From Eledone cirrhosa (Eukaryota), in NCBI GenBank assembly GCA_964016885.1, contig OZ024760.1, forward strand, positions 29,202,001-29,266,000: DNA of 64,000 bases. Reading direction: 5' to 3'. The notes under the pieces were generated by a model, which did no database searches, had not been told where the DNA came from, and worked only from the letters and a program-made list of their open reading frames with translations. The position numbers and the translations under genes are program-made. Of this stretch, positions 17,763-63,506 are shown in pieces; position 1 is the stretch's first letter; the number at the start of each line of letters is the position of its first letter.

Positions 17763-18023
17763 TGTCAGTCAAGTCAGAACCTTTATTAAGTTATGTTCCC
17801 AAAATATTTCTCCAGTGAGAAAGAATGTTATTTTACCAAATATCTTTATAATTTTTTTACATGATTTGAAAACAATGTGCAATGTTTTGCATTAGAAAAT
17901 ATGGCAAGGGCGGTGCCCCAGCATGGCCTCAGCCGGATGGCTAGAGCAAGTAAAAGAGTAAATGAGCAACAAAAGGGTTAAAAACATTTTTTTTTTACAC
18001 GTTTTTTTTTGGTTTTTTTTCAG

Positions 18024-18225
18024 GTATTACTGTTGATGCTGTCGATAAAGGTCTAAACGGTTGTGTTGTGAAAGCAATATCGGCAGAGGGCGCTGTCAAC
18101 AAAGATGGCCGTATTGCCGTAGGGGACTACATTGTGTCGATCAACAATGAAAATATGCGGAGAATCACTAATGCTCAATCTCGAGCAATCCTTCGGCGAG
18201 CATCTCTACTAGGGATGGACATAAG
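18024..18225 (+). CDS. MPDZ: PDZ domain exon resembling MUPP1 PDZ6 (GITVDAVDKGLNGCVVKAISAEGAVNKDGRIAVGDYIVSINNENMRRITNAQSRAILRRASLLGMDI), phase 1-2
   Basis: Manual translation (not in ORF track); poly-T cag acceptor, AG|gtgagt donor; DGRIAxGDxI and TNAQxRAxLRRxSL match recalled MUPP1 PDZ6. Confidence 0.92.
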
Positions 18226-26563: not shown

Positions 26564-27599
26564 GTTATTTTGGTATCACTTCTGTTTTTAGCCTAAGAAA
26601 ATATCTATATGCATGTGTAATTAATACACGCATACATTTATTTTTTAAAGAGTTCTTAACACGTTGGATTGATAATGTTTTTGAAAAAACTAATTAACCC
26701 GAGTGTATATTATTTTTTTCTTTTCTCGTGTATCGTGGTTGTATCCCTTTCCTGCTTCGTGACGCTATGAAACTTCCTCAGTCAAAAGACTGCTGGAATT
26801 TCAAATTTGGCGGTCATTCGATGCGTGAAGGAGCAGCTTAGCAGACACGATTTTTAACTGCGGTAAGAATTTTTTTCTTATATCAAAGTTTAATGGGCTT
26901 CCACTGAAGATTTATAAGTGCCCACCTAAATATATTCTTACATGAATATATGTTAGGCTTCTACATAAACTGGAAACATTCTCCCAATTTGTAGAAAACT
27001 TATAATGAAACAATTGTTTGGAAAGAGAGATATATTTTAACTTTAATTATATCTCATAAAATAATACAACTGGCTTTCTACAAAATACATATAGTTAGCA
27101 CCCCAAACACTTAAATTGGGTTATAATAACATATAACCTAATGTTTGTTGAGTGAGATGGTTACCAGTCGGAGTTTAGCGTTAAGCTATCTCTGTTATTG
27201 TATTAAATATATATATATATTATATATATTTCGTTTCTAAATTTGTTTAGCAAGATTCTTTATCTGAAAACGTGTGTTGAAACCGATATTGTTATACTTT
27301 GGGAGGGTCATGTTCCCAATAAGAAACACACACACCAGTTGCTTTCACTTCAATTTATTATAAATTAAGGAATTTATAAATTTCCGGTTGGTTGGTTGGT
27401 TCCACAACCAGACAATTGTTCATATATTATCAAAGTTCTTTCGTCACACATTCTGTGACCTCTTCAGTGACTGGGGATTCTTTTCTTTGTTTTTGTGCCT
27501 CTCCTTTGTTCTGTCGTACGCCATCTTGTTTTTGTGTGTCACAACAAAAACAAGATGGCGTAGGACAGAGCAAAATGAGCCTGGTGGTAAGGGATAAAT

Positions 27600-27995
27600 A
27601 TATGGAGGCACATGGCTTAGTGGTTAGAGCATTGGGCTTGCAATCAAAAGGTTGTGAGTTCAATTCTCAGACCAGGTGATGTGTTGTTTCCTTGAGCAAA
27701 ACACTTTATTTCACATTGTGCCAGTTTACTCAGCTGTAGAAATGAGATGATAGGGACTGGGGTCCCTATCATTCCACTGTAAAGTGGTCGTGGAGGTTCC
27801 ACGGCAAAAAAGCACCCAGCACTCACTGTAAATGAGGTTGGTGTTAGGAAGGGCATCCAGCTGTAGAAATCAAGCCAGAATCAGTTCCCGTATGAGCAAG
27901 ACAAGGTCAGCCGACTGGACACTGCCCACAACAGGACAACCCATCTAACCCATGCTAGTGTGGAAGAACGGATGTAAAATGGTGATGATGATGAG
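27600..27995 (+). mobile_element. tRNA-derived SINE family B head fused to a (GAT)n-tailed repeat; related pieces at about 2821-3215, 8143-8420, 14500-14728, 25887-26100, 30005-30140, 30628-30830, 48055-48300, 50038-50580, 63005-63265
   Basis: TGGCTTAGTGGTTAG A box, GAGTTCAATTC B box, ccttgagcaagacactt core, ggtgttaggaagggcatccagctgtagaaa body. Confidence 0.75.
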
Positions 27996-40605: not shown

Positions 40606-40709
40606 TAATTAAACTATTTTTCACTGGTAACAATTTGTCAGCATTTTCTTTTCCGTTTACCAATAAATATTTATATATATGTATATAGTATATATTATAT
40701 ATGTATATA

Positions 40710-40752
<43 letters not shown>

Positions 40753-41054
40753 GTATATATATGTATATTGTATATATATGTATGGTGATATACATATATA
40801 TATACTGAGTTAGAAACTCACAGTAGTCTCTGACAATTAAATTGCTCTAAGAAAAAAACTTTTCCGAGCCGTGTAATATACTTGAATAAACAAGAGAGAT
40901 GAACACTAATATAAACATACATGTGTTTGAATCGTAAGGACTACGTTTGCTAGGGTGAAAAAATACTAACTACAGCAATATGGTTTGCCAGACTTAATTT
41001 AAAGTAGTAAATTAAGAAAGGTAATAACAAACCTATATTGGGCAACTGCCTGAA

Positions 41055-41137
41055 AACACCTAGACAGTTATGGAAACTGTTTCGCAAAATCATATTAAGC
41101 GAAGTCATCACCATTTCTCTGCTCATCAGTAGGTGTT
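41055..41137 (-). ncRNA. Canonical type I hammerhead ribozyme motif, GUC cleavage site
   Basis: Reverse complement: aacaccta CTGATGA gcagag...ttttgc GAAA CAGTT-tccat-AACTG TC^ taggtgtt; perfect 8-bp stem I, full stem III. Confidence 0.88.
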
Positions 41138-41519
41138 GAGAAATTAGCAAACCTTCCACTTCTAAAAATATTAGAGGACTGAATTGTGTGCGATATGAAA
41201 TAACGAATATGTCTTCGGAGCCTAGCTTGTCTCGAAAACCTATGACGTTAAAAATAACAGCCTGGTTAACATGACATTAAAATTAGCTCTACATGATAGA
41301 GCTATTTAATTGTAAGAGACTACTTTGAGTTTCTAACTCAGTATATATTTGTCGGCTCCGTCATGCACAGGTAATTTTAATGTTGTGTTAACCAGGCTGC
41401 TATTTTTAGCGGCATAGTTTTTCGAGACAAGCTAGGCTCCGAAGACACGTGCATTATTTCATATCACACGCAATTCAGTCCTCTAATATTTTTAAAAGTG
41501 GAAGGATCGCTAATTTCTC

Positions 41520-41587
41520 AACACCTACTGATGAGCAGAGAAATGGTGATGATTTTGCGAAACAGTTTCCATAACTGTCTATGTGTT
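41520..41587 (+). ncRNA. Canonical type I hammerhead motif on the host sense strand, about 240 nt upstream of an exon
   Basis: aacaccta CTGATGA gcagag aaatggtgatga ttttgc GAAA CAGTT tccat AACTG TC^ tatgtgtt; one stem I mismatch; predicted cut after 41579. Confidence 0.8.
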
Positions 41588-41828
41588 TTCAGGTAGTTGC
41601 CCAATATAGGTTTGTTATTATTTTTCTTAATTTACTACTTTAAATTAAGTCTGGCAAACCATATTGCTGTAGTTAGTATTTAAAATATGTCGTTAAAATA
41701 AAGTACCAGTAATACACTGGGTTAATTGCTGGCCTTGTGCCAAAAGTAGAAGCAATTATTATTAAGAAATGTTGCTACTAATTTTAACCAACACAGTAAA
41801 CAACTTATGTTTCCTTTCATTTACACAG

Positions 41829-42106
41829 TTCCAATTTATCTCCTATTCACATCTACGGCCATGGGAGTACGGAGGGTCTTCGTTCTGCCTACTCCTCTCC
41901 GCTACACAGCCCACTGCACCTGGGCAAGGATAAACCAGCCAGTGCTCCCACATCACCGATCATATCCATTAGCTCTAAAGGACAGGGACGCCAGATGACC
42001 CTGTCATGTGATGGCTCCCCAGCCACAGGCGACCACACGTGGAGATCACCGCGTGAGGTTACCCTAGAGAGAGAACCGGGCAAGAGTTTAGGCATCAGCA
42101 TTGTCG
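41829..42106 (+). CDS. MPDZ: MPDZ-like exon, linker plus start of PDZ7-like domain (SNLSPIHIYG...TWRSPREVTLEREPGKSLGISIVG), phase 2-1
   Basis: tttcatttacacag acceptor, G|gtaagt donor; WxxPRxVxLxREPxKSLGISIVG is typical of MUPP1/PATJ PDZ7. Confidence 0.92.
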
Positions 42107-42732
42107 GTAAGTTAAATTTTATTTGGGTTTTTTTTTGGGGGGGGGTCGTTCAATTTAACTTACTCTTTAGCACTCTTTTCTCTTGGTGATGCATATATAC
42201 TCGTACACACACACACATACACATATATATGTATACATATATGTAAATAAGAGCGTTATTGCTCCAATCTATCCACAAAATACCGAGCAAACACCCACTA
42301 GTAAAGATACTATAAATATTTGAATTGACAAACCACATTAACAAGACATTCTTGAAAAGTTAGGAAAGAGAACTGCGACTGCATTACAATAAATATTAAA
42401 GTTTTTTTCTGTAATACTGCAAATGTTTACGATGATCTGTGTTAGTAAAGATACTATAAACATTTGAATTAACAAACCACAAAACCACGTTAGCAAAACA
42501 TTTTTGAAAAGTTACAAAACATCACTAAGACTGCATCTCATTAAATATTAAAGTCTTTTCTGTAATACTACACATTTCACAATGATCTGTCTGCTATTAA
42601 AGATATTATAACCATTTGAATTAGCAAGCCCATGTTTAGATATGTTTAGCTTAACAATTAATGGATGTTAAAAGTTAATTGAAATAGTTTGTATTTGATT
42701 AGGAGGGAGTTAATAACTTCACTCTCTGCTAT

Positions 42733-43060
42733 CAACACTTTCTATACAACACTTCCTGTACAACACTTTCTATACAACACTTCCTGTACAACACTTCCTG
42801 TACAACGCTTTCTATACAACACTTTCTATACAACACTTTCTATACAACACTTCCTATACAACACTTCCTATACAACACTTCCTGTACAACACTTCCTGTA
42901 CAACACTTTCTATACAACACTGCCTGTACAACACTTCCTATACAACACTTCCTGTACAACACTTTCTATACAACACTTCCTGTACACCACTTTCTATACA
43001 CCACTTCCTGTACAACACTTTCTATACACCGCTTCCTGTACAACACTTCCTGTACAACAT
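42733..43060. repeat. 14-bp minisatellite abutting a splice acceptor
   Basis: caacacttcctgta units. Confidence 0.95.
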
Positions 43061-43073
43061 TTTTTCTTTGTAG

Positions 43074-43201
43074 GTGGAAGAATTAATGTGCCTCATGCTA
43101 CTCCAGAACAAATAATGTCTGGAATTTTTATAAAACTTGTGATGAAAGATAGCCCTGCTGGCAGGGAAGGTTCACTTCAGACTGGTGATAGAATCTTAGA
43201 G
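43074..43201 (+). CDS. MPDZ: PDZ7-like exon (GGRINVPHATPEQIMSGIFIKLVMKDSPAGREGSLQTGDRILE), phase 1-0
   Basis: ttttctttgtag acceptor, GAG|gtatgt donor, GIFIKxVxxDSPAG..G.L..GDRILE PDZ motif. Confidence 0.95.
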
Positions 43202-43559
43202 GTATGTAGCATAACCTGCATTTATGAGAGTCGGCTGAACAGTTTATAGGATCACTAGGAAGGAGTGATGCTAGAGCTGTGAAATCTTGTTTTAATTTCA
43301 ATTCTTATATTAATAACTGCATTGTTTCTTTCCAGTGATTATGTTGAAAAATAAAACTCATTTGGTCATTCCATGAGAGTATCTTGGTCAGCCTATGAAC
43401 TTTTCAGCTGACCCCTGTATTATTATTATTATTATTGTTGATGTTGTTATTATAGGGATATATTGACCCAAGGGCGTTATTTACATGGGGATTGAATGGC
43501 GGATAGGGTAGAGAGGACTCTTCAGTGATATTTCTTACTCCAGCTCTGAACAGTGATAC

Positions 43560-44293
43560 AGCCCCTTGCCTCCAGCTCTCTATATTCTGACTACAAATAC
43601 AGCCCCCAGTCACCAGAGAAGTAGCCCCTTGCCTCCAGCTCTCTATATTCTGACTACAAATACAGCCCCCAGTCACCAGAGAAGTAGCCCCTTGCCTCCA
43701 GCTCTCTATATTCTGACTACAAATACAGCCCCCAGTCACCAGAGAAGTAGCCCCTTGCCTCCAGCTCTCTATATTCTGACTACAAATACAGCCCCCAGTC
43801 ACCAGAGAAGTAGCCCCTTGCCTCCAGCTCTCTATATTCTGACTACAAATACAGCCCCCAGTCACCAGAGAAGTAGCCCCTTGCCTCCAGCTCTCTATAT
43901 TCTGACTACAAATACAGCCCCCAGTCACCAGAGAAGTAGCCTCTTGCCTCCAGCTCTCTATATTCTGACTACAAATACAGCCCCCAGTCACCAGAGAAGT
44001 AGCCCCTTGCCTCCAGCTCTCTATATTCTGACTACAAATACAGCCCCCAGTCACCAGAGAAGTAGCCCCTTGCCTCCAGCTCTCTATATTCTGACTACAA
44101 ATACAGCCCCCAGTCACCAGAGAAGTAGCCCCTTGCCTCCAGCTCTCTATATTCTGACTACAAATACAGCCCCCAGTCACCAGAGAAGTAGCCTCTTGCC
44201 TCCAGCTCTCTATATTCTGACTACAAATACAGCCCCCAGTCACCAGAGAAGTAGCCCCTTGCCTCCAGCTCTCTATATTAGAGCTACAAATAC
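43560..44293. repeat. 63-bp highly homogeneous minisatellite (about 11.5 units)
   Basis: gccccttgcctccagctctctatattctgactacaaatacagcccccagtcaccagagaagta. Confidence 0.97.
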
Positions 44294-44704
44294 ATTTCTT
44301 CCAAGTACTGCCACCGGCAAGTACCAGCAATGTAAGGACCAATTGAAACCCAGTCAGATGATCATCTTTTATCTTTTTGTGAAATATTCTGTGAGAATTT
44401 TGAATATTAATTTCACTTAGAGTTAATGGCGTCAATGCATGACTATGAAGAATATTCTAAGTACATGATAAAGGTCTCTGGAGACAGAAAGGATAAAGAG
44501 TCTGACCCTCTCCAGGGTCCTATATGACCAACTTTGACTATTTTTCAAAGTCAAAGACATTGAAAGCATTGAATCAAATTAACTCCTCCTCATCATCCTC
44601 ATTATCCTCGTCCTCATCCTCATCCTCATCCTCCTCCTTGTGCCCCTCTGCCTCCTCTTCATCCCCCTCCTCCTCCCCCTCCACCCTCATCTCGCCTCCT
44701 CTTC

Positions 44705-62927: not shown

Positions 62928-63506
62928 GTGTGTGTGTTTGTATGTGTGTGTTTGTATATGTATGTATGTGTGTTTGTATGTGTGTGTGTTTGCGTCTGTC
63001 TGTATATCATCATCATCATCACCGTTTTACGTCCATTCTTCCACGCTATCATGGGTTAGACAGGTTGTCCTGTTGTGGGCAGTGTCCGGTCGGCTGACCT
63101 TGTCTTGCTCATACAGGAACTAATTCTAGCTTGATTTCTACAGCTGGATGCCCTTCCTAACACCCACCTCATTTACAGTGAGTGCTGGGTGCTTTTTTGC
63201 TGTGGCACCTCCACGTCCACTTTACAGTGGGAGGGTGTGGGGGCATATTGTCTATATGCTTCAGCATATAGTGTATATATATATATATATATATAATTTA
63301 TCCTTTTAATTGAGTCTTGTGAAGCGTATTATCTTTAGTCAGTATTTTCTTCACCCTGGCGGTCTACATCCCTTGTGATTTGAACACTTATATGTATATA
63401 TCTGTGTCTCTCTTAAGGCTTGGAAAACTTTTCCCTTGAGCTACTTTGATTATAAGGGACTAATATGAGTTTTTAACTCAATATATACTTTTGATATTTA
63501 TATCGA

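Follow-up and report, generated by a model that had tools for sequence, protein, structure and literature searches.

Among described systems, the closest to the element studied here are the metazoan non-LTR retrozymes, which are reported to be non-coding and AT-rich, each unit bearing a single type I hammerhead ribozyme, and to occur both dispersed and in tandem (PMC7229834; 10.64898/2026.07.22.740005), and of which intronic copies are described as common (Li et al. 2026, 10.64898/2026.07.22.740005). Their reported unit sizes are 170-400 nt, and they are described as yielding both linear and circular RNA monomers; metazoan hammerhead motifs are reported usually to have a helix III of 1-2 bp (PMC4209133). 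A further point of comparison is provided by the Penelope-type elements (PLEs), whose insertions have been described as combining a partial tandem, an inverted 5'-truncated copy and a tail (PMC8557442), and two start sites, where the site is not homologous to the target, have been described for an anole PLE (PMC11167929). Tails of 30-40 nt, a preference for (TA)n and a hammerhead within the repeat have also been reported for PLEs. Two other known arrangements resemble parts of the locus, namely the hammerheads that are isolated and conserved in introns, and the inverted Alu pairs, in which two opposed repeats in one intron form an intramolecular duplex of about 300 bp that is edited by ADAR.

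The locus examined here lies in a 64,000-nt stretch of the Eledone cirrhosa genome (hereafter the window). With a probability of about 0.8, we take it to be a single intronic insertion, within an MPDZ/PATJ-like gene, of a non-LTR retrozyme, here a non-coding hammerhead repeat with a 511-nt unit. A Penelope-type reverse transcriptase (RT) probably synthesised it from the two sides of a (TA)n break, and the opposite arm is predicted to hold the sense ribozyme inactive. The Eledone family shares with the metazoan retrozymes the general properties listed above; it differs from them in its larger unit, in occurring mostly as monomers and as partial dimers with inverted arms, in its 6-bp helix III, in being known here from DNA and contigs rather than from circles, and in a mutation hotspot at the catalytic A13 for which no counterpart was found for metazoan retrozymes in the literature searched. 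Its anatomy matches that of PLE insertions, its two fixed 3' ends match the two start sites of the anole PLE, and it shares with PLEs the (TA)n preference and the hammerhead. Unlike PLEs, it has no RT/GIY-YIG ORF anywhere in the 511-nt unit, as an autonomous PLE would; the tail between its two ends measures 78 nt, and both of these ends lie at TATAT runs, in contrast to the anole site. Like the conserved intronic hammerheads, the ribozyme is of type I and sits in sense within an intron, but it is one of hundreds of copies and bears private lesions. It likewise resembles the inverted Alu pairs in its layout, except that both arms come from one insertion event and the duplex is a predicted one.

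The exon downstream of the element and the next exon find their best matches in MPDZ and InaD-like PDZ structures, and the acceptor at 41829 is backed by a contig of sequencing run X4 whose match to the window is confined to 41829-42108, a pattern typical of a spliced transcript. Further PDZ exons were found near 18000-18200, upstream on the same strand, and at 43075-43202 (81 of 162 candidate frames scanned). Given that PDZ exons occur on both sides, the insertion sits inside the MPDZ/PATJ-like gene (Table 1). The repeat at which the plus arm stops has at least 10 other copies in the window and very high depth in the sequencing runs, and we tentatively label it SINE-like. A weak tRNA match (31.6 bits) at 27613-27670 (+) is probably the head of a tRNA-derived SINE. 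Tandem arrays of 14 bp and 63 bp flank the next PDZ exon (42733-43090 and 43425-44417), and a 67% diverged 3' piece related to the 511-nt family adjoins (TA)n at 63294-63490.

Table 1. Features of the insertion and its surroundings, in window coordinates.
Feature	Position	Strand	Remarks	Basis
(TA)n-rich tract	40660..40802		element 3' end abuts; likely target site	sequence
Whole monomer M1-M505 of the retrozyme family	40798..41302	-	arm B + 111-nt spacer + arm A	
Predicted intronic RNA duplex	40961..41681	+	about 306 pairs, 195 adenosines	
Antisense type I hammerhead	41055..41137	-	identical to family majority; C3 41129, A13 41082, C17 41063	
Head-to-head junction of arms	41297..41302		6-nt overlap (microhomology)	sequence
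Partial tandem	41297..41681	+	final 52 nt of one monomer (A'), a 6-nt linker, then positions 1-342 of the following one (B')	
Helix of stem I 5' flank with loop II	41508-41519 with 41538-41548	+		MFE fold and family pairing
Sense type I hammerhead	41520..41587	+	stem I 41520-27/41580-87; core 41528-34 and 41559-62; helix III 41562-78	
Fragment of an unrelated, very high-copy repeat	41689..41764	+	plus arm stops there	
Exon of MPDZ/PATJ-like multi-PDZ gene	41829..42106	+	encodes start of a PDZ domain	

A preliminary description of this DNA had pointed to inverted arms interleaved in the order A-B-A'-B', and these are indeed present, at slightly refined coordinates. Arm A (40798-40849) is 94% complementary to A' (41297-41348) over 52 nt, and arm B (40961-41302) is 88.6% complementary to B' (41355-41681), with a 15-nt gap in B'. 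Mapping of the parts onto other family loci reveals that B, the spacer and A constitute a single unbroken monomer on the minus strand, which stops at the distal fixed 3' end (CTCAG followed by TATAT). A monomer in inverted orientation, linked to a partial tandem, gives this interleaved order, and many family loci show the same; the idea of a designed switch is not borne out. The plus arm is without the 85 nt leading up to the usual proximal end at M427; since M505 is where the minus arm ends, these last 85 nt were probably lost from the plus arm at the point where the high-copy repeat begins. Each of the fixed 3' ends coincides with a TATAT run inside the monomer, at 40803-40798 (M500-505) and 40880-40876 (M423-427), and these runs might base-pair with a nicked (TA)n primer. 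A stop-free frame of 108 codons crosses the hammerhead of arm B (40953-41276, minus strand), and a coding role for it was rejected, since the frame is lost across subfamilies and the corresponding sense-arm piece has no Pfam match. Gene conversion between the arms was likewise rejected, as their outer part has no private changes in common.

A genome-wide search for the family returned 2,323 and 3,595 candidates, 40 of which were scored each time, and hammerhead patterns gave 70-85 exact matches across the genome. The length of the unit, 511 nt, is given by a natural tandem. Among 147 family loci, which were picked by similarity or pattern so that the frequencies of layouts are biased, both orientations occur in 84 and no inverted part in 63, and two opposed whole hammerheads are present in 20, the window included. 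Joined inversions are head-to-head in 77 of 82 cases; these 77 combine an M427 with an M505 end in 42 instances, M427 twice in one, M505 twice in none, and have an eroded end in 34. M505 and M427, which lie 78 nt apart, are the preferred ends of copies (176 and 99 pieces, respectively, against 75 ending elsewhere), and at 46 loci 49 of the 71 outer 3' ends abut TA runs. Same-strand partial tandems are found in 36 of 46 loci, a few loci have two hammerheads in tandem, and whole monomers are preceded by either the end of a previous monomer or (TA)n. One further locus (L049) shares the layout of the window. At another (L050), a single case, both arms begin exactly 3' of the cleavage site (M241) and form a perfect fold-back. 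Three contigs of diverged family members occur in X4, a probable RNA run, although contigs cannot show circles. We propose that the template of the insertion was an RNA, probably circular, that the writing enzyme would have been a Penelope-type RT, and that the last 85 nt of the plus arm may have been lost later.

Several other origins were considered and set aside. A MITE or other DNA transposon does not fit, as the length of the inverted arm varies from locus to locus and 63 of the 147 loci have no inverted arm. Nor is this a single-copy hammerhead, as expected of the conserved host-regulatory type, given that the sequence belongs to a multi-copy family. In a first set, 5' truncations seemed to cluster at A14 or at the cleavage site, but this did not persist in 117 loci. 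Fragments of PLEs lie near 10 of 149 searched stretches, scattered and of several kinds; the PLE family to which a GIY-YIG fragment beside L007 belongs was rejected as a demonstrated autonomous partner, the monomer having no similarity to it (one PLE family, 19 loci), and no autonomous element sharing sequence with the monomer emerged from this comparison. That PLE family, represented by L062-L080, is very abundant, with 50,960 candidates, open frames of up to about 780 aa and inverted pairs, and a pattern scan of its 3' region found no hammerhead core.

Both long arms carry a full hammerhead, as the preliminary description had stated, with the core CUGAUGA...GAAA...GUC and a helix III of 6 bp, and this helix agrees with its suggestion that each copy is built to be competent as a monomer. 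The predicted cut of the sense copy after 41579 also holds, with C17 at 41579 (C3 41528, G12 41559, A13 41560). The general core, CUGANGA / GAAA / UH in type I order, is present in both window copies with all core bases kept, as it is in 72 of 162 full family copies; N7 differs between subfamilies and the other core bases do not. The sense copy has two private lesions, a C-U mismatch in stem I at 41525/41582, where the family has G, and a deletion of 15 nt of loop II near 41548. In predicted folds, one strand among the lost nucleotides pairs with the core, and thus the deletion need not be damaging. The intact family-type hammerhead at the locus is the antisense copy.

Rfam detected no hammerhead in the window, either at the gathering score or up to E = 10, and RNAalifold by itself recovered helix III only. 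Across the family, 93.8% of cells are paired in the three-helix hammerhead. A stem I pair is swapped from C-G to A-U in 14 of 52 copies, as one inherited event, and inspection of an older subfamily by eye adds a second swap in stem I and one in helix III. These compensatory changes support the type I hammerhead as real. The additional helix between the stem I flank and loop II is paired in 92% of cells in 52 copies, with 8 of its 11 pairs varying on one side only, and could be a tertiary contact of the pseudoknot type or else belong to an off-state fold.

It had also been suggested that pairing of B with B' masks the sense ribozyme. Energy models, which leave out pseudoknots, proteins and editing, predict such masking, with 306 long-range pairs and a cost of 87.6 kcal/mol for forcing the hammerhead. 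The A:A' fold, which had been put forward as a competitor, reaches -69 kcal/mol and is far weaker than B:B' at -498. Arm B is transcribed first, and 221 pairs (-279 kcal/mol) are predicted to form before C3 is made; masking might accordingly be co-transcriptional, with arm B zipping up with B' before the core is transcribed, and would be a by-product of how the element inserted. With the upstream arm removed, the strict hammerhead fold still lies 10-14 kcal/mol above the best predicted fold, and a minimal fragment of 71 nt has a fold within 1.8 kcal/mol of the hammerhead state. ADAR could plausibly act on an intronic duplex of about 306 pairs, and A-to-I editing here, if any, would be bystander editing of an inverted repeat. 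The contigs of run X4 cover neither window hammerhead at 90% likeness, which is uninformative either way.

With regard to divergence, each arm has 13 differences from the family majority and their terminal branches (0.037 and 0.028) bracket the median of 0.033; both arms have diverged like ordinary copies, at a neutral level. Private changes number 4 in 349 positions in the outer arm halves, from the hammerhead onward, as against 16 in 320 in the inner halves (p = 0.003), a split that was picked post hoc from the repeat table and in which four of the 16 inner changes form one cluster. Some constraint on the ribozyme-bearing part is nevertheless possible. Such constraint, along with the sense orientation, the intact core, an acceptor 249 nt away and the adenosines of the duplex, would fit a host that has co-opted the insertion, such that ADAR editing loosens B:B' and the sense hammerhead then cuts the pre-mRNA and tunes the splicing or output of the PDZ gene. 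We regard this as very improbable, given that the layout recurs in 20 of 147 loci, that the stem I mismatch and the deletion are private to the very copy that would act, that the folding barrier is about 88 kcal/mol and persists in part without the upstream arm, and that about 42-44% of Xenopus retrozyme copies are reported to be intronic anyway (10.64898/2026.07.22.740005). A reading without regulation is leaky cutting, in which the intron is cut now and then by the sense ribozyme, and the insertion is either slightly harmful or tolerated because splicing is faster. The near-parity of the minimal fragment with the hammerhead state and the retained flank-loop II helix speak for it, but the early synthesis of arm B and its many pairs ahead of C3 speak against it, and we hold it to be improbable. 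The coupling of editing, cleavage and splicing that the preliminary description had envisaged is therefore unlikely, and the reading of the locus as a masked retrozyme insertion is preferred.

The family harbours a mutation hotspot at the catalytic A13, which is intact in both window copies (41560 on the plus and 41082 on the minus strand). Of 172 copies, pooled after the exclusion of two (one with a large deletion, one truncated), 52 have lost or replaced this base: G in 27, deletion in 13, T in 7 and C in 5, with five insertions left out of this count. A genome-wide pattern in which A13, A14 and A15.1 were left free found them changed in 22, 2 and 1 of 70 matches (p = 2e-9), and a separate set, chosen by the 5' half of the core alone, has A13 changed in 11 of 34 by eye. 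The G variant is present in short-read contigs, and hence is not an assembly error. In a 138-copy alignment, parsimony requires 33 changes for 34 A13 substitutions in 131 copies, indicating that the changes are nearly always independent; the next-ranking column reaches half this rate and the median column one eighth, and the changes are spread over well-supported subfamilies. In 31 multi-copy loci, both copies are changed in 7 pairs (permutation p = 0.008), of which 6 have different outcomes. In homoplasy the cleavage/ligation site C17 ranks third among the columns (14/136), and G12 to A is also raised (19/172). An early co-occurrence of A13 and C17 changes (p = 0.03) disappeared in a larger set (p = 0.35).

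A control hammerhead family with the same CGAAA context has A13 changed in 80 and A14 in 59 of 16,502 matches, a ratio of 1.4 as compared with 11 in the retrozyme family; the control family is younger, yet the ratio is independent of age. A general hammerhead effect can thus be discarded, as can a general effect of CGA context, since the other CGA sites of the element are not elevated. A second control family gave four matches only. One copy of the larger control family lies in the window at 27430-27480 (-); it is a minimal hammerhead, and the copies of that family often occur in inverted pairs. Host selection for dead ribozymes was rejected as the sole cause, given that the other freely sampled core positions are at background. 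A13 change becomes more frequent as terminal branches lengthen (from 8/43 to 21/43, p = 0.005), and none of the 11 closest within-locus pairs shows any change there. In favour of an origin in the copying step, CpG decay elsewhere, which we take as the more reliable clock, is no higher in changed copies (20/253) than in unchanged ones (62/570), and terminal branch length does not track it (rho 0.01), so that this length may measure copying error rather than age. No prior report of an A13 hotspot was found in the article texts searched.

On balance, we favour the view that the hotspot arises when RNA is copied into DNA, by way of either a modified base or a stall or nick at G12-A13. One possible cause, offered tentatively, is an m1A-like modification that blocks Watson-Crick reading and would inactivate the ribozyme, stabilise the circles and over-represent them as templates. 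It would account for the mixed outcomes, the independence of the changes, the differing outcomes within doubly changed pairs and the lack of raised CpG decay in changed copies. However, no m1A writer motif, such as GUUCRA, is known to fit A13, there is no 5' truncation pile-up at A14, and the three X4 contigs keep A, although contigs drop rare variants. Mixed misincorporation is described as an RT signature of m1A, with m1A followed by A giving mixed, low-C mismatches (PMC4787781), but internal m1A is reported to be very rare in mammalian mRNA (PMC13458256). Under the m1A-like reading, which we hold only tentatively, A13 might be so modified in a large share of the RNAs, stopping the circles from being cut again, and the Penelope-type RT would write the mark as G, T, C or a deletion at each pass.

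It is doubtful, on the evidence, that the RT instead stalls at stem II or the pseudoknot, or jumps a nick at G12-A13 such as a metal-ion cut of GAAA/UUU, thereby adding, skipping or mis-templating a base. G as the next template base, one-base deletions and the five insertions are what slippage would produce, the raised changes at G12 and C17 are in keeping with it, and GAAA/UUU is reported to be cut between G and A (PMC2553595), that is, at G12-A13. Yet no hotspot exists in the control family, whose core is the same and whose stem II is stronger, a subfamily with only UU before GCGAAA has an equal rate (24/83), and few deletions are seen at other AAA runs. A DNA-level hotspot acting after insertion, through a local lesion or repeated nicking with error-prone repair, is equally open to doubt. 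The increase with terminal branch length, the unchanged closest pairs and the lower frequency of A13 change where the adjacent CpG has decayed (3/45 against 27/117) point towards it; conversely, terminal length is uncorrelated with CpG decay, neither the other CGA sites nor the CGAAA control copies are elevated, and a clock-only model fits worse than a clock plus intercept. It appears unlikely that the element RNA is edited from A to I at this one site and that reverse transcription then fixes the change. Such editing would explain why G is the commonest outcome (27 of the 52 changes), and A13 is paired in a predicted alternative helix; nevertheless, ADAR disfavours a 5' G neighbour, as A13 has, and family-wide A>G changes (7.6 per 1000) show no excess over T>C (9.5 per 1000). 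Inosine, moreover, is reported to be read as G (PMC13458256), which leaves 25 deletions, T and C changes unexplained.

Together these observations suggest that the locus itself is an unremarkable example of an already described kind of element, for which regulatory coupling is unlikely, while the family is novel in its atypical hammerhead and in the robust, unexplained single-site hotspot at A13. Inverted hammerhead pairs in the Eledone cirrhosa genome carry a warning, in that they are likely to be by-products of Penelope-type integration. Some mechanism besides self-pairing is stated to be the probable reason why circular animal retrozyme RNAs do not cut themselves in vivo (PMC7229834, Discussion), and a hotspot of 30% with mixed outcomes at a single catalytic adenosine offers one exact nucleotide at which circle blocking can be tested. 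If the hotspot is of DNA-level origin, it would be an unusually strong sequence-specific mutation hotspot, and if it reflects an RT stall or nick, it would report on a barely studied PLE enzyme. If the m1A-like reading is true, it would settle what silences the hammerhead of animal retrozyme circles in place of self-pairing; the genome would then be a fossil record of a site-specific chemical off-switch, and retrocopies could be read as modification maps.
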